A stretch of DNA of 64,000 bases from Candidatus Aenigmatarchaeota archaeon (lineage in GTDB: Archaea > Aenigmatarchaeota > Aenigmatarchaeia > GW2011-AR5), in the NCBI GenBank assembly GCA_041645025.1, contig JBAZQV010000001.1, forward strand, positions 1,519-65,518, in the 5' to 3' direction. The first letter of the stretch is position 1, and each line of letters opens with the position of its first letter. The translations under genes were made by a program, and so were the position numbers. The notes under the pieces are model-generated. The model ran no database searches. It was not told the DNA's origin and saw only the letters and a program-made list of their open reading frames with translations. Positions 1,497-61,082 of the stretch are shown here, piece after piece.

Positions 1497-1676
1497 GCGA
1501 GGGTACCCAAGAAGCCCTTTTCTAAAGAAAAGCGCTTGCGGAAAAGAACAAGAGCCCTTTTACAGAAAAGGACTTGGGAATCTGGTCAAAGGGGCAGGAG
1601 ACGACTAATAATCGTCTGCTAAACTTAAGATCCTGTGGCAGTAGTGCCTACGGGAGTTCAAATCTCCTCCCTCGCA
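1497..1676 (+). tRNA. tRNA-Leu(UAA) with two introns. Exon1 1497-1511, intron1 ~1512-1580 (D-loop, 15/16), exon2 1581-1599, intron2 1600-1623 (31/32), exon3 1624-1676. Predicted mature length 87 nt; no encoded CCA.
   Basis: Acceptor GCGAGGG pairs with CCCTCGC; T-arm GGGAG-TTCAAAT-CTCCT; D-region TACCCAAG/TCTGGTCAAAGGGG matches archaeal tRNA-Leu; anticodon stem CAGGA/TCCTG with loop CTTAAGA; long variable arm TGGCAGTAGTGCCTAC; CCCAAG/CTTGGG helix at the intron1 boundary. Confidence 0.75.
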
Positions 1677-3295: not shown

Positions 3296-4024
3296 ATGAA
3301 CATCAAACAGCTGCTTGCTATTGCCAAAATAGTCCCAAAACCCGAAATGGACCAGTACTTTCTTCAGGACGATTCGATACTGAACGAGGAAGTTTCTCTC
3401 GCCAAGCTAAGCAGCAAGGATACCGTTTTGGAGATAGGCGCGGGCATAGGCAACCTCACTATACTCTTGTCAAAGAAGACAAAGGTAATAGCAGTGGAAA
3501 AGGATTATGCTTTTTCGCACGTCCTGAAGGGCATACAAAACACAAATACAATATTTGGCGATGCGCTGGAATTTCTTGAGTCTCTGAGAAATGTAGATAA
3601 GAAGCCACGTATTGTCACATTTAATAAAATCGTCTCGAATATTCCCTACTCCATTTCACAGCCTTTGCTGCTTGAATTTTTCAGGCACAAATGGGACATT
3701 GCTATCCTGATCGTGCAGAAGGAGTTTGCTGAAAAGCTGATATCAAAGGAAAGACTGGGAATGATAATGTCAGACATCGCTGAAACAAAAATAATCAGAG
3801 ACGTGCCTGCTAACGCGTTTTATCCAGAAGCAGTACCTTCTTCTCTTGTCGTTGTCAAACAGAAGAAACTTCTCGACGACAAATTCTGGGATTTTCTATG
3901 TTCGCTTAAGCCGAACAAGAATGTCTCTAATCAGGTAAAAAAATGCCCCAAAGAACTCGCTATCAAAAAATCCCATCAGCTTACCTTGACAGAATTGAAG
4001 AAACTCTACACCCTACAGAAGTAA
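3296..4024 (+). CDS. ksgA: 16S rRNA (adenine1518/1519-N6)-dimethyltransferase KsgA/Dim1
   Basis: LEIGAGIGNLT motif I and NIPYSISQP motif. Confidence 0.75.
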   Translation: MNIKQLLAIAKIVPKPEMDQYFLQDDSILNEEVSLAKLSSKDTVLEIGAGIGNLTILLSKKTKVIAVEKDYAFSHVLKGIQNTNTIFGDALEFLESLRNVDKKPRIVTFNKIVSNIPYSISQPLLLEFFRHKWDIAILIVQKEFAEKLISKERLGMIMSDIAETKIIRDVPANAFYPEAVPSSLVVVKQKKLLDDKFWDFLCSLKPNKNVSNQVKKCPKELAIKKSHQLTLTELKKLYTLQK

Positions 4025-6406: not shown

Positions 6407-6600
6407 TTAATATTCAGGTACAACAAAGAACTTGTAGTTCTTTGTGTACAGAAAGAACTTTGTTCTTTCTTGTATTATAAAAGTTGGTCACATACAAGGT
6501 GAAACAAAGTTTCACCTGTACAGGTTAAGCGTTGCTTAACCATGTATAGCAAACCAAGGTATAATATCCAGATTCTTTACTTGGTTAGCTATAAACCAAT
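6407..6600 (+). ncRNA. Structured ~190-nt element, copy 1 of a two-copy family (candidate ncRNA or structured repeat)
   Basis: Closing helix CCAACTT/AAGTTGG encloses two hairpins, followed by a GTGAAAC hairpin, palindromic CCTGTACAGG and further hairpins; copy 2 at 46488-46670 keeps the architecture with compensatory stem changes. Confidence 0.4.
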
Positions 6601-7867: not shown

Positions 7868-8245
7868 TCAGATATTAATATTCTGTTCACCCAAATATTT
7901 TGTTTTTGCAGATTTTATTGTTCCTGTCACACCAATTATTTTTATTATACATTTTGTTTCACTTATAATGGATATCAGGGACAGGGCGGTTCTTACCTTT
8001 TCCATATTATCATGCCTGCACTTTATCATGCCAATCTGTTTTTTGCTGTCATAAGTATTGTGCACAAACCATATATTCGCCTCGGCACCGCCAAGTTCAC
8101 CAAGGAACTCCATGGTGCTTGTCCATATGGTGTTCACCAACTCGCCATAAATTATCGGCTGGTCTGATATGACTTCAAATACTATGTAGCGCTTTGGCGG
8201 ACGCATGCTGGGAGGTAGCATTTTTGGTTCTGCCATAATTATCAA
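7868..8245 (-). CDS. rnp2: RNase P protein component 2 (Pop5 family)
   Basis: 125 aa; PPSMRPPKRYIVFEVIS N-terminus typical of Pop5; adjacent to Rpp30. Confidence 0.7.
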   Translation of the reverse strand: MIIMAEPKMLPPSMRPPKRYIVFEVISDQPIIYGELVNTIWTSTMEFLGELGGAEANIWFVHNTYDSKKQIGMIKCRHDNMEKVRTALSLISIISETKCIIKIIGVTGTIKSAKTKYLGEQNINI

Positions 8246-11816: not shown

Positions 11817-11877
11817 TCTACTCCAAACTATTTTTTATTTTTGGATGGTTATCTAAGAATGATTTCAGAGAAATCAT

Positions 11878-11937
11878 TCTGGATCCCATCTTCTCATCTA
11901 CAGAAAAATTCAGTGACATATAAAGAAGATGTGATTA
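11878..11937 (+). repeat. Repeat B copy 1 (TCTGGATCCCATCTTCTCAT ... AAAGAAGATGTGAT, hairpin-forming with a variable loop)
   Basis: Same conserved ends as 25659-25723; ends are mutually complementary (CCCATCTTCT/AGAAGATGTG); abuts the ATG of the ORF at 11939. Confidence 0.5.
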
Positions 11938-11938
11938 A

Positions 11939-12397
11939 ATGGAACTTAAAGAGGCTATAGATAGGGCTGAAAGCGATGAAGGCGTCAAGAAGCTTACGAA
12001 GTATTTCATGTGTTCCTGCTTTGTCTGCATAAAGGACATCAAAGATAAAATAGATGAATGGACACTTCTTTTTTACAATCCTGAAAAGGAACTTGTTATT
12101 GACTGCTTTGTGAATGACAAATTTGTTACACTGGGCGAGGAGACGCCACCACTGAAAGAGGTAAAAAAACCCGACTTCACTGAAGCGCATGTGACAATTA
12201 AAGAGGCACTCGAAACGGTCGAGAAAAAATTTGACAAAAAAACCATAAACGTGCTCATAACTCTTCATCAGAAGGACACTTTGGTCTGGACCATAAACAT
12301 GATAACGCCGGATATGAATGCAACTACTTTTGACATAGATGCAAAGACCGGGAATATAGTGCACGAAGAAACCACAAGTTTGATAAGAAGACTATGA
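11939..12397 (+). CDS. Hypothetical protein with a possible PepSY-like C-terminus
   Basis: C-terminal FDIDAKTGNIV resembles the PepSY motif. Confidence 0.3.
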   Translation: MELKEAIDRAESDEGVKKLTKYFMCSCFVCIKDIKDKIDEWTLLFYNPEKELVIDCFVNDKFVTLGEETPPLKEVKKPDFTEAHVTIKEALETVEKKFDKKTINVLITLHQKDTLVWTINMITPDMNATTFDIDAKTGNIVHEETTSLIRRL

Positions 12398-18479: not shown

Positions 18480-19424
18480 ATGCGCAAAAGTACTATGAAA
18501 ACCGATACCGCTGTAAAGGGCTACGATTTTTCCAAGGGCCTGGACCTGAAGAGTTTCCTTGAAGCCTATGCGACGACCGGGCTGCAGGCGTCCAACCTGA
18601 CAAAGGCTATAGAAATAGCCAAAAAGATGAGAAAGGAGAAGGTCACAGTATTTCTTGGCTACACCTCTAACATGATTTCCTCGGGCGTGCGTGAGTCCAT
18701 CCTATATCTTGTAAAAAACAAACTAGTGCATGCTATAGTAACCACGGCTGGCGGCGTAGAAGAGGATATAATAAAGTGCATCAAACCTTTCATATTGGGA
18801 GATTTTCGTCTTGACGGGGCAGCACTGCGCCGCCAGGGCATAAACAGGACAGGTAATATTCTGGTTCCCAATGACAGGTACATAGAATTTGAAAAGATAT
18901 TTACTCCATTTCTAAAGAAGCTTTTGGAAGAGCAGAAGCAAACAGGAAAGATAGCCACACCCACGGAGATTTGTAAGAGACTGGGAGAACTGGGTGATGA
19001 GACGTCTGTTCTTTACTGGGCACAGAAAAATAACATACCAGTTTTCTGCCCAGGCATAACCGATGGTTCCATGGGTGACATGATTTTCTTTTTCAAGAGC
19101 GAGAACCCGGAGTTCAAGGTTGATGTGTCTGATGATATCCACAATATAATAGACATGGTAATGGACTCAGGAAAGACGGGCGCGATAATCCTTGGCGGCT
19201 CCCTGCCAAAGCATCACATAATGAATGCTAACGGCGTTTTGGATGGTCTCAAGTATGCCATATACATAAACACTGCTACCGAAGGCGATGGATCGGACTC
19301 GGGTGCAATGCCTGAAGAAGCAAAGAGCTGGGGCAAGGCTGATTATGATGCTGATTGTGTAAAGGTTAGCATGGACGCTACGATAGCATTTCCGCTTCTT
19401 GTGGCGGGACTGGTGATTGAATGA
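18480..19424 (+). CDS. dys: Deoxyhypusine synthase, copy 1 (start trimmed to MRKSTMKT)
   Basis: 314 aa; GGSLPKHHIMNAN and NTATEGDGSDSGA motifs. Confidence 0.85.
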   Translation: MRKSTMKTDTAVKGYDFSKGLDLKSFLEAYATTGLQASNLTKAIEIAKKMRKEKVTVFLGYTSNMISSGVRESILYLVKNKLVHAIVTTAGGVEEDIIKCIKPFILGDFRLDGAALRRQGINRTGNILVPNDRYIEFEKIFTPFLKKLLEEQKQTGKIATPTEICKRLGELGDETSVLYWAQKNNIPVFCPGITDGSMGDMIFFFKSENPEFKVDVSDDIHNIIDMVMDSGKTGAIILGGSLPKHHIMNANGVLDGLKYAIYINTATEGDGSDSGAMPEEAKSWGKADYDADCVKVSMDATIAFPLLVAGLVIE

Positions 19425-20377
19425 GCAAGATGAATGAAGCTAAAGACAGCATATTCAAGGACTCCACAGAGCCGGAAGGCCTTGAAATAAAGGGCTACGA
19501 TTTTTCAAAACAACCAACCCTGAGTAAATTAATAGAAAGCTTTTACTCTACAGGATTCCAGGCTTCTCATCTGGGCAGGGCCATAGAAGTTGCAAAGAAG
19601 ATGAGAAAGGGGAATGTGACAATATTTCTTGGTTTTGGCGCAGATGCAGTTGCTTCCGGCGTCCGCGAGTCTATATCTTATCTTGTAAAAAATAAGATAG
19701 TTCATGCGCTAGTGACCACGGCCGATGGCATTGAAGCCGATGTCATAAGGACAAGGAAAGATTTTGTTCTGAATGGAAAGGGGAAACGCGGGGATAATTT
19801 TGTAGGAAATATTATGATTCCATGCGACGGGTATAAAATATTCACAGATATTCTAAACAAGACGCTTTCCGAGTTGTATGTGGAACAGAAAAAATCAGGA
19901 GAAATAGCTACACCGGGTAAAATTGCAAAAAGTCTGGGAAAGGTGTGCGATGAAACTTCTATACTGTATTGGGCACAGAAAAATAACATACCGGTTTTCT
20001 GTCCTGGCATAACTGACGGCGCCACGGGAAATATAATATCTTCATTCAAGTCAAAGAGCAGGGACTTCAAGCTGGACGTGAGTGATGATGTTGTTATTCT
20101 TGAGGACACGGTCCTGGACGCCAAAGAGACAGGCGCAATAATTCTCGGCGGTTCCCTGCCAAAGCACCATATAATGAATGCTAATATGATGCGCGAGGGC
20201 ACCAAGTACACGATTTACATTAACACAGCCATGGAAGGAGACGGCTCGGACAGTGGTGCGCTGCCAGAGGAAGCAAAGAGCTGGGGGAAAGCTGCCGCAG
20301 ATGTTGATTCGGTGAAGGTTCAGGCAGATGCCAGCATAGTTTTTCCTCTGCTGGTCGCTGGGGCTTTTGTTGACTAG
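19421..20377 (+). CDS. dys: Deoxyhypusine synthase, copy 2 (tandem paralog, overlapping stop/start)
   Basis: 318 aa; about 55-60% identical to copy 1 by eye; the same motifs are conserved. Confidence 0.85.
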   Translation: MSKMNEAKDSIFKDSTEPEGLEIKGYDFSKQPTLSKLIESFYSTGFQASHLGRAIEVAKKMRKGNVTIFLGFGADAVASGVRESISYLVKNKIVHALVTTADGIEADVIRTRKDFVLNGKGKRGDNFVGNIMIPCDGYKIFTDILNKTLSELYVEQKKSGEIATPGKIAKSLGKVCDETSILYWAQKNNIPVFCPGITDGATGNIISSFKSKSRDFKLDVSDDVVILEDTVLDAKETGAIILGGSLPKHHIMNANMMREGTKYTIYINTAMEGDGSDSGALPEEAKSWGKAAADVDSVKVQADASIVFPLLVAGAFVD

Positions 20378-22858: not shown

Positions 22859-23254
22859 TTAGTTTCTTTTTTCTTTACCAAAATCTAATATTTTTGAAAC
22901 GGCTTCTCCGCAATAATCTCTACAACCCAGCCTTTCTGATAAAAAGTCTACTGCATCCATTGCTTCTGGGAAACCTCCTATTGAAGTTCCATCCATTCTT
23001 CTTGTTCCATAACCTATGGTAAGTCCCAACACCAAAAAATCACGAAATAAAGTCTCCACCTGAGGTTGTTCGTAGTCTGGTATATCAAGAGGCCTCATGA
23101 ATATACCTCTTGGGTGGTTTAGCGCCCCGGACTTTATTCCATAGCAAAAGACATCAAGGCAGTAGCGGGAAACCTTTGCATAGATGTCTGGTCTTATTTC
23201 TCTGAACTTGTCAAGTATATCTGGCAGGTCGCGTTCGATAATGGCTTTGTACAT
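22859..23254 (-). CDS. Hypothetical protein
   Basis: 131-aa ORF. Confidence 0.4.
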   Translation of the reverse strand: MYKAIIERDLPDILDKFREIRPDIYAKVSRYCLDVFCYGIKSGALNHPRGIFMRPLDIPDYEQPQVETLFRDFLVLGLTIGYGTRRMDGTSIGGFPEAMDAVDFLSERLGCRDYCGEAVSKILDFGKEKRN

Positions 23255-23295
23255 ACAAGTGAGAATTATTGAAAAGTATTAAAAACATAATTAAC

Positions 23296-23350
23296 CCTTT
23301 TTCTTGGGAAGAAAAAGCCCTACTGGAAAAAGAACATATTATAAAAAGGA
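23296..23350 (+). promoter_or_regulatory. U-rich palindrome (CTTTTTCTTGGGAAGAAAAAG) plus BRE/TATA-like AAAAAGAACATATTATAAAAAG module
   Basis: Same module family as 1677-1735, 29327-29393 and 55401-55451. Confidence 0.4.
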
Positions 23351-23361
23351 TATCACTGCAC

Positions 23362-25536: not shown

Positions 25537-25632
25537 CTATAGTAGAAGACATTAGTTTTCATACAAAATAATGTCTTCTGCATATAGCAGTGACATCATA
25601 ATATGTACGGTTATTTATGTCACATGCTATAA
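25537..25632 (+). repeat. 96-bp repeat A, left copy, two internal hairpins; inverted partner at 46717-46812
   Basis: 94/96 identity to the reverse complement of 46717-46812; stems AGAAGACATT/AATGTCTTCT and TATAGCAGTGACAT/ATGTCACATGCTATA. Confidence 0.8.
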
Positions 25633-25658
25633 GATGAACATTTTACAATAAATGTTCG

Positions 25659-25723
25659 TCTGGATCCCATCTTCTCATAAATTCATGTATTTAGCCATAT
25701 GGGTATACAAAGAAGATGTGATA
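25659..25723 (+). repeat. Repeat B copy 2
   Basis: TCTGGATCCCATCTTCTCAT ... ACAAAGAAGATGTGATA; same ends as 11878-11937 with a different loop. Confidence 0.5.
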
Positions 25724-25852
25724 AGTTTTAACCTGTTGAACTAGCCGAGTAAAGAAAACTTTATAGCCCATGAAAGAAATAACAGATATATTATACCTAT
25801 GATAACTATGAGCGAAACAGAAATTATTACTCTTTTCGCTCTGTAGAAAGGG

Positions 25853-29310: not shown

Positions 29311-29326
29311 GTCTTTCTTCTTTAAG

Positions 29327-29393
29327 CTTTTCTTAGAAAGAAAACCTTGGAAAAGAACTATTATAGAAAAAGTGGCTTGCAGTCAAAAAGAAC
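29327..29393 (+). promoter_or_regulatory. U-rich palindrome plus BRE/TATA-like module (TTTTCTTAGAAAGAAAA ... AAAAGAACTATTATAGAAAAAGTGGCTTGCAGTCAAAAAGAAC)
   Basis: Immediately after the stop of the 572-aa gene; shares GTGGCTTGCRGTCAAA with the module at 1700. Confidence 0.4.
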
Positions 29394-29484
29394 TTATTAT
29401 ATTTTCGGCTCACTGACGTTCGCAGTGTGTAGAGTCTTAGCTAGCTTTTAGTTATTGTTTCAAACTACAGCAATAAAGCTTAAA

Positions 29485-43684: not shown

Positions 43685-44710
43685 ATGTCCAATTTCATAG
43701 GAATTGACTCAAGAAAGTTCCTAAGAAAAGGGATAACTAATGATTTTCTTGGCATGATTGCAATAGGAATAGAAGTTAAGAGTTATGATTATTTTAAAGA
43801 CAAATATATTTCCGTAATTTCTGATTTATTGAGAAAAAGAGGCATAAAACCAGATAGAAGTGTATACAAATCGTATGATTTGCATAGACTTGGCATAACA
43901 CACGACTTTTATAAAGAATTTTATAATAGTATATTAGACCATATAGAAAGCTTGTATGTATTTTATTCTTATTTCACATATACGCCCTTAACCAGTCGAG
44001 TTAGAATATTTCCTTTTACATCCAATAAAGAGATTAGTTTCATAGATTTTATAGGCAATCATTTAGATTCTCCATTTCCTCATGTATGTTTATGGCAATT
44101 ACATACAATGGGACATCTAAAGGGTAATGCATTTCTCGATGGATTCAATGGAAAAGTTACCAATGCTTGGAAAGCTATAGAAGACTTGACATCATTTTTC
44201 ATTTTGCCAAATGGGGATAAATCCAACGCATTAATTGCCTCATCTGATATACTCATGAATTATTTCGATATTCAATTATTTGATAATGGTGGAAAATTAA
44301 CACCAACAGATATTAAGGACGTATTTCCTGAATTAGACAAAGCAAACAAACTGAAAACAATGTTCATAAGCAATGCATGTTTATACCACATTATACCACT
44401 ATCAGAAGCATTGAATATTCCGACACATCAGAAAATTCCACATCCTATATTTTTTATATTCAAAGAAAAGAATAGTGGAATAAATGAAAGAACTATAGAA
44501 CATTCTCCACTATTCAGAAAAATCATAGACTTATCTTTTAAGAATAATGGGTGCTTTAAGTTTTTTGATGCAGATTTTGACTATAATGTTATTTCAGAGA
44601 AAGATTATTTTATTCATTTTGGTGATGAAGGTAAAAAAACCTCTGAAAATCTCAAGAATTTAGGATACTCTCTTAAACCACTGAACTTTGCAGAACTTGA
44701 AAAATTGTAA
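43685..44710 (+). CDS. Hypothetical protein (341 aa)
   Basis: ORF in a local AT-rich context; no motif recognised. Confidence 0.4.
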   Translation: MSNFIGIDSRKFLRKGITNDFLGMIAIGIEVKSYDYFKDKYISVISDLLRKRGIKPDRSVYKSYDLHRLGITHDFYKEFYNSILDHIESLYVFYSYFTYTPLTSRVRIFPFTSNKEISFIDFIGNHLDSPFPHVCLWQLHTMGHLKGNAFLDGFNGKVTNAWKAIEDLTSFFILPNGDKSNALIASSDILMNYFDIQLFDNGGKLTPTDIKDVFPELDKANKLKTMFISNACLYHIIPLSEALNIPTHQKIPHPIFFIFKEKNSGINERTIEHSPLFRKIIDLSFKNNGCFKFFDADFDYNVISEKDYFIHFGDEGKKTSENLKNLGYSLKPLNFAELEKL

Positions 44711-46487: not shown

Positions 46488-46670
46488 GTTCTCCAAGGAA
46501 ATAAACAGGATACGAGGAAGAATTGAAAATTCTTCCTGTACAGAAAGAACGAAGTTCTTTCTTGTATTACTTCCTTGGGAACTATACATGGTGAAGCAAC
46601 GATTCACCTGTACAGGAGAACCAAAGGTTCTCCATGTGTGTGAACCCAGTCGCATGAAAATTCTTTTCTG
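46488..46670 (+). ncRNA. Structured element, copy 2 of the family seen at 6407-6600
   Basis: Closing helix CCAAGGAA/TTCCTTGG, hairpins GGAAGAATT/AATTCTTCC and AGAAAGAAC/GTTCTTTCT, conserved CCTGTACAGG, covarying hairpins GGAGAACC/GGTTCTCC and GTGAACCCAG/CTGGGTTCAC. Confidence 0.4.
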
Positions 46671-53041: not shown

Positions 53042-55393
53042 ATGGATATAGAGAAAAAATTAAAGGAAATGGAAGAGTCCATAAAGACCATAGCAGAGTT
53101 CGTGAGGGACCAGACGGAAAAGATAGAGGCAGAGCTTTCCATGCCTGATTATTCGGACGAGATGGAGAAGATAAAGGAAACTTTTTCTGACGAAAAGGAA
53201 TACGCGCGTCTTCAGGCGAAAAAAATCGACAAGCTTGAGGGGCATGTGGAGGTGCTTCTCAAGTCGCCCAAGGACAAGTCAATGGAGGAGAAATTCAAGA
53301 AATCCATGCAGTCCACCCGTGCTGAACTTGACAAGCTTAAGCATGAGCTGATGCCAAAGGTAAAATTCATCGAGGGAAAGATGGACAAGATCAAGGAAGC
53401 AGTGGAAGAGGTTGGTGAGCTACACGAGCTAAAGGGTCACATGAAGGAACTGGAAACGAAAATGCAGGCCAGTGTTGAAGGTGTTGAAAAACAACTCAAA
53501 GAAGTCACAAACACCAACTTCGGTGATAATTACAAAAAGGAACTGGAGAGATTGAATGAGGGAATGCTGGCGCGGTTCAAGGACAATAACGTGGAATACT
53601 TTGAGAAGCTGGGTTATATTGAACAACGCGTCAACTCGCTAACTGGAAAGGTCGACAAAACCTCCAATGATGATATCCTGCAGAAAGTCAAAAGCCTGGA
53701 CGAAAAGCTTGGCAACCTGAAGGAGTCGCTAGACGGTATTGCTGCCCTGAATCCAGAGGAGATGAAAGACCGCGTTGATTTCATAGACAACAAGCTCAAT
53801 GAGACACTTGTCAATAAGAACCAGCTGGATGACATGGAAAAAACCTTAAGGGAAACCAGGGCTGTTGCGAACAGGTTCAAGGATTTCAATGCCGAGGAAT
53901 ACAGGGAGGAACTGGTCAAGGAAATAAACGGTGCTATTGAAAATTTCAAACGCAGGGAATTCGGCAACATAAAAGACATCGGCGAGTCGCTTTCAAGGTT
54001 CAAGAACCTGGAATTAAGCGACGTAAGAAAGATAAACTCACTTGTCGAGGAGCTGAAGGGACTTGAGATAGATGATGTCAAAGCCATGAAAAACATCGAG
54101 ACACGCGACATAAGACGGCTGAGCACGGCGCTCGACGAAATGAAGGGCGTCGAGCTGGAGGACATCGGAAGGCTCTCACGGCAGCTCAAGGATGCGCGGG
54201 AGTCCATTCGCGCGGAAATTGGCAACAAGCAGGCAACAGAGGAGAGACTTGCTTCAATTGAATCAAAGATGGAGGAGCTAAAGCGGGCTGAGAAAAAATT
54301 CGACAAGCATATAGGCGACATACTTGACCAGTTCAAGGATATGGAGGCGCACAACGTAAAGGACATGGCAAAACAGCTCAAGGAAGCGAAGGAGCTGCTG
54401 GAAGACGAATCAGTGAGCAGGCAGTCGTTTGAAAAACGCGTATTTGATATTGAAAACAAGGTACAAAACTTTGAAAAGAGCACTGCAAAAACCCTCGAAC
54501 AGTTCAAGCACTTCGAAGGCGAGGAAGTGAAAAAACTCAAGCAGCTGGCTGAACATTTCGAGCACCTTGAGTCAGATGACATAAAGAAGCTCAAAGAAAA
54601 CATGGAACACTTCAGCGAGCTGGAATCAGATGACATAAAGAAGCTCAAGGAAATGGTAGCGAACTTCGAGCACCTGAAGACTGAGGACATAGGCAAGCTG
54701 AAGCAGATGGTGGAACACTTCGGCAGTCTCGAATCCGATGACATAAAGAAATTGAGGGGAGCTATGGAGCAGCTCAAGGGTCTTGAGGCGCATGATATCA
54801 GCAGCCTTACGGAGAAAATGAAAAATGCGACAGAAGCGCTGGAAGATGAATCTGTAAACAGACAATCGATGGAAAAACGCATCATGGACTTGGAATCAAA
54901 GACCGAGAAAATCGACAGCATGGAGATTCATGATATTGAAAATCTCGCCAATGAGATGAAATACGCCAAGGAAACTCTGGAAGAGGAGTCGGTGACACGG
55001 CAATCACTTGAAAAACGGCTTCATGCTATTGAAACAGACATGAGCCAGGTGCGCGGTGTAGAGGCCGGACAGGAGAACGCCGAAAAAGTTGACGTTACAA
55101 AGCTCAGCAACCGGATCCAGGATATGGAAAGCAACATGAAACTTATGACCGTCAGACTGCTTACACAGCAGCTGAACGAGTTCGCAAAGTCAATTGACAG
55201 AAGGCTGCCAAACATTGTCAGCCGCGAGGAGTACCTAAGGCAGATAGCTGACTTGAACCAGCGCATACGCACCGTGGAAGCACCGGACCTCGCACCACTG
55301 GGCGCACGCGTCGGAAGGCTGGAGAAGAAGCTGGAAGAAATAGCTGGAATGATGCGCGGTATGTACAACCGGATTCCTATTGTTGTCGAATAA
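53042..55393 (+). CDS. Large coiled-coil protein (783 aa) with tandem 18-aa repeats
   Basis: Repeats HFEHLESDDIKKLKENME / HFSELESDDIKKLKEMVA / NFEHLKTEDIGKLKQMVE ...; no TM segment or signal peptide. Confidence 0.55.
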   Translation: MDIEKKLKEMEESIKTIAEFVRDQTEKIEAELSMPDYSDEMEKIKETFSDEKEYARLQAKKIDKLEGHVEVLLKSPKDKSMEEKFKKSMQSTRAELDKLKHELMPKVKFIEGKMDKIKEAVEEVGELHELKGHMKELETKMQASVEGVEKQLKEVTNTNFGDNYKKELERLNEGMLARFKDNNVEYFEKLGYIEQRVNSLTGKVDKTSNDDILQKVKSLDEKLGNLKESLDGIAALNPEEMKDRVDFIDNKLNETLVNKNQLDDMEKTLRETRAVANRFKDFNAEEYREELVKEINGAIENFKRREFGNIKDIGESLSRFKNLELSDVRKINSLVEELKGLEIDDVKAMKNIETRDIRRLSTALDEMKGVELEDIGRLSRQLKDARESIRAEIGNKQATEERLASIESKMEELKRAEKKFDKHIGDILDQFKDMEAHNVKDMAKQLKEAKELLEDESVSRQSFEKRVFDIENKVQNFEKSTAKTLEQFKHFEGEEVKKLKQLAEHFEHLESDDIKKLKENMEHFSELESDDIKKLKEMVANFEHLKTEDIGKLKQMVEHFGSLESDDIKKLRGAMEQLKGLEAHDISSLTEKMKNATEALEDESVNRQSMEKRIMDLESKTEKIDSMEIHDIENLANEMKYAKETLEEESVTRQSLEKRLHAIETDMSQVRGVEAGQENAEKVDVTKLSNRIQDMESNMKLMTVRLLTQQLNEFAKSIDRRLPNIVSREEYLRQIADLNQRIRTVEAPDLAPLGARVGRLEKKLEEIAGMMRGMYNRIPIVVE

Positions 55394-55400
55394 GTAAGAC

Positions 55401-55451
55401 TTTTCTTTGGAAAAGAAAATCCTTAAGCCAAAAGAAACATATTATAAAAAG
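55401..55451 (+). promoter_or_regulatory. U-rich palindrome (CTTTTCTTTGGAAAAGAAAA) plus BRE/TATA-like AAAAGAAACATATTATAAAAAG module
   Basis: Follows the stop of the 783-aa gene and lies ~58 bp upstream of the epimerase ATG. Confidence 0.45.
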
Positions 55452-55508
55452 AGTCTCACTAGCGCTCGCGATAATTACGTTTTAATCTGTTTCTGAATCA
55501 TTAGTCCT

Positions 55509-60961: not shown

Positions 60962-61082
60962 TGGGCTCGAGGAGATTTGAACTCCTGTCTCAAGGTACAT
61001 CGCACCTTCTTTTAGTACAGCTTTTCTTTCTAAGAAAAGGTGTCCCGAACCTCGGATCCTGACCAAGCTAGACTACGAACCC
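60962..61082 (-). tRNA. tRNA-Pro(CGG) with a 47-nt intron at the canonical 37/38 position. Exon1 61082-61044, intron 61043-60997, exon2 60996-60962.
   Basis: Minus-strand GGGTTCG...CGAGCCC acceptor, D-arm GTCT/GGAT, anticodon stem CGAGG/CCTTG, loop TTCGGG|A, T-arm AGGAG-TTCAAAT-CTCCT; the intron contains the CCTTTTCTTAGAAAGAAAAG hairpin. Confidence 0.7.

Follow-up and report, generated by a model that had tools for sequence, protein, structure and literature searches.

A tRNA-Leu(UAA) gene is located at positions 1497–1676 on the forward strand of the window (the whole 64-kb stretch of DNA analysed), between rpoD and the L18e gene. The unspliced gene of 180 nt corresponds to a spliced product of 87 nt with the properties of a class II tRNA-Leu: a long variable arm with its own stem, a 3-bp D-stem, the discriminator A73 (position 1676), and a leucine anticodon (TAA, 1626–1628); CCA is not encoded. 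Exon 1 (1497–1511, GCGAGGGTACCCAAG; tRNA positions 1–15) contains the 5′ strand of the acceptor stem, U8 and A9, the 5′ strand of the D-stem (CCC), and A13, A14, and G15. It is followed by intron 1 (1512–1580), 69 nt inserted at position 15/16 with a relaxed BHB motif of the HBh′ type; exon 2 (1581–1598; positions 16–30), which comprises the remainder of the D-loop, the 3′ strand of the D-stem, G26, and C27–G30; intron 2 (1599–1622), 24 nt inserted at position 30/31 with a complete hBHBh′ motif; and exon 3 (1623–1676; positions 31–73), with the anticodon loop, variable arm, T-arm, 3′ strand of the acceptor stem, and A73. Because the three exons follow one another in order within 180 nt, the gene is neither split nor permuted, and the introns, given their lengths of 69 and 24 nt and no Rfam match at E ≤ 5, do not belong to group I or group II.

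The gene cluster around the tRNA is conserved (S11–rpoD–tRNA-Leu–L18e–L13–S9–rpoN), and the neighbouring genes were assigned with Pfam to S11, Rpb3-type RpoD, L18e, L13, S9, and RpoN; a gene for the Pop5 subunit of RNase P was also identified with Pfam at 7868–8245. The relatives of RpoD found in the genome collection, with identities of 47–89%, were all Aenigmatarchaeota or unclassified-archaeon MAGs, indicating that the host is a DPANN archaeon, and the tRNA-Leu(UAA) gene adjoined rpoD in 13 of 13 related genomes. An earlier note on this DNA had described multi-intron tRNAs at noncanonical positions as rare outside the Thermoproteales and a few DPANN lineages. This calls for a minor correction, because the host itself belongs to the Aenigmatarchaeota (DPANN) and is thus inside the groups in which multi-intron tRNA genes are expected.

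Standard gene finders did not detect the gene. ARAGORN and Rfam at gathering thresholds reported no tRNA in the whole 64-kb window, and the Rfam tRNA model did not match the unspliced tRNA-Leu locus in either gathering or E-value mode. ARAGORN also found nothing at the raw locus or when only intron 2 was removed; when only intron 1 was removed, ARAGORN with the -i option reported tRNA-Leu with a 24-nt intron, and the 87-nt product with both introns removed was reported as the same tRNA-Leu(taa). As a chance control, the window was scanned with a custom program that required a T stem-loop, then a 7-nt acceptor strand, and a complement to that strand within the preceding 450 nt; only two places were found: the tRNA-Leu locus and a tRNA-Pro(CGG) gene on the reverse strand at 60962–61082, which contains a canonical 37/38 intron of 47 nt. 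The tRNA-Pro gene was likewise missed by ARAGORN and by Rfam in gathering mode, and was matched by the Rfam tRNA model (43.1 bits) in E-value mode only. These two genes are the tRNA genes of this genome that were examined, and a second, uninterrupted tRNA-Leu(UAA) gene may be present elsewhere in the genome.

Direct reading of the upstream region revealed a TATA-like sequence, TTTAAA, at 1467–1472 on the forward strand, 25–30 nt upstream of the 5′ end of the tRNA, which is a putative promoter element. Immediately before the gene is the sequence TGATCAG (1490–1496), which is conserved in most relatives. It was located directly before the tRNA-Leu, or 4 nt upstream of it, in L001–L004, L006–L008, L015, L017, and L019 (loci of related genomes), and the spacer around it was otherwise highly variable. 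A role of TGATCAG as an initiator or leader element is possible. The pairing between leader and trailer around the tRNA, examined by eye, amounted at most to a weak helix of 7 bp with two G·U pairs.

The splice junctions were compared with the geometry of a BHB motif, in which a central helix (H) of 4 bp is flanked by two bulges of 3 nt, each cut after its second nucleotide, and by an inner helix (h′) and an outer helix (h). In intron 1, the central helix is formed by 1506–1509 (CCCA) and 1575–1578 (TGGG), with four of four Watson–Crick pairs; the bulges are A1510 G1511 | A1512 on the 5′ side and A1579 A1580 | T1581 on the 3′ side; and the inner helix is formed by 1513–1521 (AGCCCTTTT) and 1566–1574 (AAAAGGACT) with a single C·A mismatch. 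Since intron 1 has no outer helix, its motif is a relaxed BHB, and a broad-specificity endonuclease that accepts relaxed motifs would be needed. Intron 2 has all the elements: an outer helix of 1590–1592 (AGG) with 1624–1626 (CTT), a central helix of 1593–1596 (GGCA) with 1617–1620 (TGCT), bulges at G1597 G1598 | A1599 and A1621 A1622 | A1623, and an inner helix of 1600–1604 (GACGA) with 1612–1616 (TCGTC). Because an A is repeated at this junction, the excision of 1599–1622 (30/31) and that of 1600–1623 (31/32) yield an identical product, and the canonical BHB geometry is present only in the register 1599–1622. The length and spliced product that the earlier note had given for the second intron are therefore retained, whereas its proposed site between positions 31 and 32 is replaced by 30/31. 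Similarly, the CCCAAG/CTTGGG helix that had been thought to bring the ends of intron 1 together does exist and is used in the minimum free energy (MFE) fold, but the register in which splicing could occur is CCCA/TGGG plus AG/CT. Both introns conform to the definition of a BHB intron (3-nt bulges and a 4-bp helix, or the relaxed HBh′ or hBH form), and in the BHB folding that had been proposed as a check, motifs were found at both junctions with the cleavage sites at the right positions in the bulges.

The background frequency of this BHB geometry over the window was approximately 4.7 × 10⁻⁴ per site pair. There were only three matches in the region 1400–1790, two of which were the predicted introns 1 and 2; the third was a 22-nt alternative, 1600–1621, with GCAG/CTGC as its central helix. 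The MFE of the 180-nt precursor was −65.5 kcal/mol (z = −4.5), and the fold contained the acceptor, T, and variable arms, with both introns as extended hairpins in a register slightly different from that of the BHB at both introns. Enforcing both BHBs in one fold gave −60.0 kcal/mol, i.e., a cost of 5.5 kcal/mol. A tblastn search of the 64-kb window for the splicing endonuclease EndA, using a Methanocaldococcus jannaschii sequence as the query, identified none (best matches, E > 5), and no ligase gene was found in the window either.

Orthologous genes provided a direct view of the two junctions. In L001 (RpoD 88% identical) and L017, both of the sites interrupted in the window are uninterrupted and the only intron is at 37/38; L001 reads through the window junctions as CCCAAGTCTGGTCAAAGGGGCAGGACTTAAG, and L017 does so with one substitution, CCCAAGCCTGG. 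The sequence at 15/16 is CCCAAG-TCTGG in L001 and CCCAAG-CCTGG in L017, and that at 30/31 is CAGGA-CTTAAG in both. Including L008 and L012, four relatives are uninterrupted at 15/16 and 30/31. The exons of L001 are identical to the window product at 85 of 87 positions, and the Rfam tRNA model scored 36.8 bits on L001 and 45.0 bits on L008, against a gathering score of 29. Hence, the uninterrupted orthologs and the BHB geometry agree on the 69-nt intron at 15/16 that had been predicted from the window sequence. A metagenome scan with the 3′ exon identified three further relatives, L015, L017, and L019; the matches L014, L016, and L018 were set aside as uninterrupted tRNA-Leu genes of unrelated organisms. 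L003 and L019 have the same two introns as the window, with substitutions that preserve the hairpins, so that the two-intron allele has been kept in three assemblies whose RpoD sequences differ by approximately 11%.

Covariation in the cloverleaf was counted on an alignment of 13 distinct spliced orthologs. In the class II cloverleaf, 99.0% of the cells were paired, and nine compensated pairs were distributed across all five helices, including two in the variable-arm stem (GGCA/TGCC). None of 500 shuffles reached the observed percentage of pairing, the numbers of compensated pairs and cells, or the covariation score, and slid controls of the cloverleaf gave 43–61% pairing. Three of these helices (acceptor, D, and anticodon) have their two strands in different exons, and the covariation therefore speaks for the entire spliced molecule. 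In the interrupted orthologs, the exon boundaries were set by hand, and some of those in the D-loop are ambiguous by up to 3 A; for the two sites of the window, the uninterrupted orthologs mean that the hand-drawn boundaries are not circular. Together with the ARAGORN result for the spliced product, the orthologs and the covariation bear out the earlier prediction that the 180-bp locus reassembles into an 87-nt type II tRNA-Leu(UAA). The introns at 30/31 were also informative in themselves. The guide strand of H is TGCT in L004, TGCC in L006 and L015, and AGCC in L009 (three of four pairs), whereas h′ is GTCT/AGAC, GAGAAG/CTTATC, or CGATT/AATCG, i.e., entirely different in sequence yet still paired. 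To judge from these sequences, the retention of H with changed but paired h′ is the pattern expected of a structure under selection.

Among the 17 related loci (including that of the window), the tRNA-Leu introns occurred in seven configurations over five sites (15/16, 20a/20b, 30/31, 37/38, and 59/60). The combination of 15/16 and 30/31 is found in the window, L003, and L019; that of 15/16 and 37/38 in L002 and L010; and that of 20a/20b and 30/31 in L006 and L015. A single intron is present at 37/38 in L001, L008, L011, L012, L013, and L017, at 30/31 in L004, and at 20a/20b in L007 and L005, and L009 has three introns, at 30/31, 37/38, and 59/60. In the RpoD tree, three configurations were already present among the four closest genomes (86–89% identity). 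Every relative had at least one intron in its tRNA-Leu, and decay of the exons was seen in none. The introns of the related tRNA-Leu loci were 11–91 nt long and without coding capacity. In L005 (GW2011_AR5), the rpoD-adjacent tRNA-Leu at 3866–3997 is inverted relative to rpoD and has its 20a/20b intron in the D-loop; ARAGORN reported a wrong 82-nt tRNA-Leu there.

Similar intron sequences were found at different positions and in different tRNA species, as in the transposing tRNA introns of the Thermoproteales. For example, the 15/16 tRNA-Leu intron of L002 and the 37/38 tRNA-Pro intron of the window are identical at 39 of 41 positions (z = 23). The 15/16 intron of the window is similar to the 37/38 tRNA-Leu intron of L017 (z = 12.7) and also to the 37/38 introns of L001 and L002, and the 15/16 intron of L002 is similar to the 37/38 intron of L008 (z = 12.3). 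The 4-nt guide at the 3′ end of the intron, which pairs with the exon, goes with the site and not with the intron body: at Leu 15/16 it is TGGG in both body families, at Leu 37/38 it is ACGG, ACAG, or TCAG, and in the tRNA-Pro intron it is CGAT. This pattern of bodies and guides fits either the replacement of bodies at existing sites or transposition followed by adaptation of the guide.

Intron 1 itself is largely composed of a hairpin module that is also found outside introns, as the earlier note had observed: two copies lie in the intron and others are intergenic, giving four local copies against none expected by chance, all on the forward strand. Copy A (1406–1443) is intergenic and terminator-like, begins within the rpoD stop codon, and consists of AAGCCCTTTTT CGA AAAAAGCGCTT followed by GCGGAAAAGAA. 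Copy B (1512–1548) constitutes the first 37 nt of intron 1, and copy C (1552–1580) forms its 3′ part, with the tail TGGGAA serving as the exon-pairing guide and bulge. Copy D (1678–1716) is intergenic, starts 2 nt after the 3′ end of the tRNA, and is followed by AAAGAAAATATTAAAAA, which resembles a BRE/TATA element. Copies B and A match in 34 of 38 aligned columns, with 21 consecutive identities; the first 24 nt of copy B are identical to the rpoD–tRNA spacer of L001, and the similarity between intron and spacer has z = 15–16. The hairpin of copy C is maintained in L003 by C-to-T changes. A scripted scan of the window for a T-rich/A-rich hairpin with a purine tail detected six distinct copies, against approximately 0.15 in shuffled controls, and four of the six are in or directly beside the two tRNA genes. 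Looser copies were found at 23287, 29324, and 55390, and one is located inside the tRNA-Pro intron.

The module copies share variants that are specific to a genome (GCTTGCGG in the window and GCCGGAGG in L001), pointing to recent duplication or gene conversion, and the presence or absence of the module differs between the spacers of relatives. The two sites of the module type both have AAG at their end, as the module has at its start, and no clear target-site duplication was seen. The genome-specific variants would fit gene conversion as well as a mobile element of the MITE/IS type. A scan of viral contigs with two module sequences gave no matches and hence no sign of a viral source for the module. 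Alignment of the module with MAFFT was out of register, and RNAalifold gave no consensus for it. Module cassettes are also found in intergenic spacers beside promoter-like sequences. In three of these (23287–23357, 29324–29400, and 55390–55460), a T-rich/A-rich hairpin is accompanied by an AAAAGAA purine tract and a TATTATA-like box; the cassettes at 29324 and 55390 come after a stop codon, and the next gene lies downstream of each of the three. From their sequences, they look like units of a terminator plus a BRE/TATA promoter that are related to the intron module. Copies A and D were considered as excisable elements and rejected, since no pair with BHB geometry surrounds either of them; these intergenic copies, which are not bounded by a BHB, are not themselves introns. 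The T4 runs in the intron copies of the module might end transcription prematurely in some cases.

Taking the intron similarities and the module together, we infer that the introns form a fast-turnover set whose hairpin bodies are exchanged between sites, tRNA genes, and terminator-like intergenic cassettes. As to how this comes about, a possible scenario, to which we give somewhat less than even weight, is that the introns are built from a dispersed terminator-like cassette (a T-rich arm, an A-rich arm, and a purine tail) that is copied or converted among spacers, intron sites, and tRNAs and becomes an intron once its last 6 nt, the 4-nt guide plus AA, complete a BHB. The series of orthologs would then be snapshots of the birth, replacement, and loss of introns.

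Several other repeated or structured sequences were observed in the window. A structured element of approximately 130 nt is present in two intergenic copies (6415–6560 and 46507–46652, forward strand) that are 72–78% identical; each contains four hairpins of 8–13 bp inside a long-range GUACA/UGUAU stem. Compensatory changes between the copies affect six pairs, and the element has no Rfam match. Hairpin arrays resembling it occur near the tRNA-Leu of L009 and L010, and the element is possibly an undescribed noncoding RNA or repeat. A recurrent motif consisting of a hairpin followed by GGATCCCATCTTCTCAT was found at 11856–11945 and 25632–25725 on the forward strand and at approximately 100–185 on the reverse strand, as well as at position 2442 of L004 and 1422 of L015. 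In its two forward-strand copies, the motif is followed after approximately 30 nt by AAGAAGATGTGAT, and CATCTTC pairs with GAAGATG; the pattern had five matches at two or fewer mismatches, against approximately 1.1 expected, and the three matches with no or one mismatch were inspected. Five tandem repeats of 54 nt (61–76% identical) lie at 54551–54820 within a long ORF, and two tandem paralogous genes (approximately 71% identical, 953–974 nt apart) lie at 18510–20361. Two sub-threshold Rfam matches to C/D-box sRNAs on the forward strand, at 44618–44696 (24.9 bits, E = 3.9) and 23012–23065 (20.5 bits, E = 1.6), have recognizable box C/D-like motifs, and it is possible that they are archaeal C/D sRNAs. 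No box C/D motifs were seen on reading the sequences of the tRNA-Leu introns.

Considering the exon–intron anatomy, the BHB geometry, the conservation, and the covariation, which are direct observations, the locus is very probably a tRNA-Leu(UAA) gene that functions in its Aenigmatarchaeota (DPANN) host and gives rise to a pre-tRNA of approximately 180 nt with two endonuclease-type (BHB) introns; the sequence evidence thus supports the way in which the earlier note interpreted the locus. Transcription would start from the TATA-like TTTAAA and produce the pre-tRNA, in which the guide TGGG would pair with C10–A13 and the guide TGCT with G25–A28. Each guide pairing would form the central 4-bp helix of a BHB, with the intron hairpin as its inner helix and the splice sites between nucleotides 2 and 3 of each 3-nt bulge. 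By analogy with established archaeal tRNA processing (PMC4090602, PMC5829648), EndA would cleave the four sites and an RtcB-type ligase would join the three exons; RNase P would remove any leader, and CCA would be added later. The intron guides would sequester both strands of the D-stem and part of the anticodon stem, so that neither the D-stem nor the 5′ strand of the anticodon stem could form before both introns are gone.

Intron 1 consists of the hairpin module that also occurs in the flanking spacers, standard finders call no tRNA at the locus, and the outer helix of the intron 1 motif is absent, all of which would also suit a dead tRNA-Leu gene that was broken by the insertion of intergenic hairpin repeats and resembles an intron-containing gene only incidentally. 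This is very unlikely, because the exons are intact (85–87 of 87 positions identical to the orthologs) and their helices covary, each insertion ends with a 4-nt exon-complementary segment in the exact BHB register, the allele has persisted across the approximately 11% of RpoD divergence that separates its three assemblies, and the relatives all keep at least one intron without any exon decay. It is slightly less probable still that the gene is spliced with other boundaries or another number of introns, i.e., that intron 1 is nested or in tandem, with one intron per module, or that intron 2 is the 22-nt segment 1600–1621. Although the two module copies in intron 1 share the direct repeat CAAGA(A)GCCCTTTT and the BHB scan does find the register 1600–1621 with its GCAG/CTGC helix, no internal pair with BHB geometry exists within 1512–1580, and removal of the 22-nt segment would leave a 9-nt anticodon loop, in conflict with the uninterrupted orthologs. 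The chance assembly of tRNA-like fragments without any gene would have nothing in its favour beyond the negative results of ARAGORN and Rfam on the raw sequence, and its probability is negligible: the comparative data already refute it through the covariation, the Rfam scores of the orthologs, and the position beside rpoD conserved in all 13 related genomes, as do the identification of the spliced product by ARAGORN and the scan of the window with only two matches. The preferred reading therefore remains a functional gene with BHB introns at 15/16 and 30/31.

Multiple-intron tRNA genes have been described in the Thermoproteales, together with "large-scale intron transposition" (Sugahara 2008 and Fujishima 2010, as cited in PMC4033280 and PMC8450103). 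As far as those citing papers present that system, the Aenigmatarchaeota genes resemble it in having short BHB or relaxed-BHB introns at noncanonical positions, up to three per gene, in having similar introns at different positions and in different tRNAs, and in being missed by standard finders. They differ in that the Thermoproteales are TACK hyperthermophiles, whereas the present host is a mesophile-type, low-GC DPANN archaeon; in that one orthologous gene was compared here across close relatives (RpoD 86–89% identical), so that the turnover of sites is seen directly; and in that the intron bodies are homologous to intergenic hairpin cassettes. In ARMAN/Micrarchaeota and other DPANN archaea, disrupted tRNA genes have been tied to broad-specificity EndAs, either of the ε2 type or α4 enzymes with an L3 loop (PMC3239211, PMC3488258, PMC5829648), and DPANN EndAs with the L3 loop are associated with disrupted tRNAs (PMC5829648); Aenigmatarchaeota were absent from the genomes analysed in these three studies. 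The genes described here share with those cases a DPANN host, noncanonical sites including 59/60 (in L009), and relaxed motifs that lack one outer helix; unlike them, they include no split or permuted tRNA genes among those seen. In a population of Caldiarchaeum subterraneum, the tRNA genes are heterogeneous, with a 1.8-kb insertion that carries a recombinase gene and with split genes (PMC3293823). There, as here, natural variation between related genomes provides snapshots of tRNA gene disruption; in contrast to the 1.8-kb insertion, the present introns are only 11–91 nt long and have no coding capacity.

A full-text literature search found no description of tRNA introns in Aenigmatarchaeota. 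In the tRNA-intron literature cited here, no account was found of intergenic terminator-like hairpins being related to intron bodies, or of a comparably dense set of configurations for a single orthologous gene. The class of gene itself is already known from the Thermoproteales and some DPANN archaea, and it is the comparative series that is added. For tRNAscan-SE 2.0, the introns used to train the BHB models came from Crenarchaeota/Euryarchaeota and Thaumarchaeota (PMC8450103). Since at least two tRNAs in the window were missed by ARAGORN and by Rfam in gathering mode, the tRNA sets of Aenigmatarchaeota MAGs probably look incomplete, and their apparent gaps are likely to be technical. A further implication of the gene is that the endonuclease of this DPANN lineage tolerates BHBs lacking the outer helix. 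The seven configurations in a single orthologous gene, together with intron bodies that match the spacers, offer a tractable data set on the origin of noncanonical introns and, if the interpretation is true, the tRNA introns of this clade of Aenigmatarchaeota would not be fixed heirlooms.
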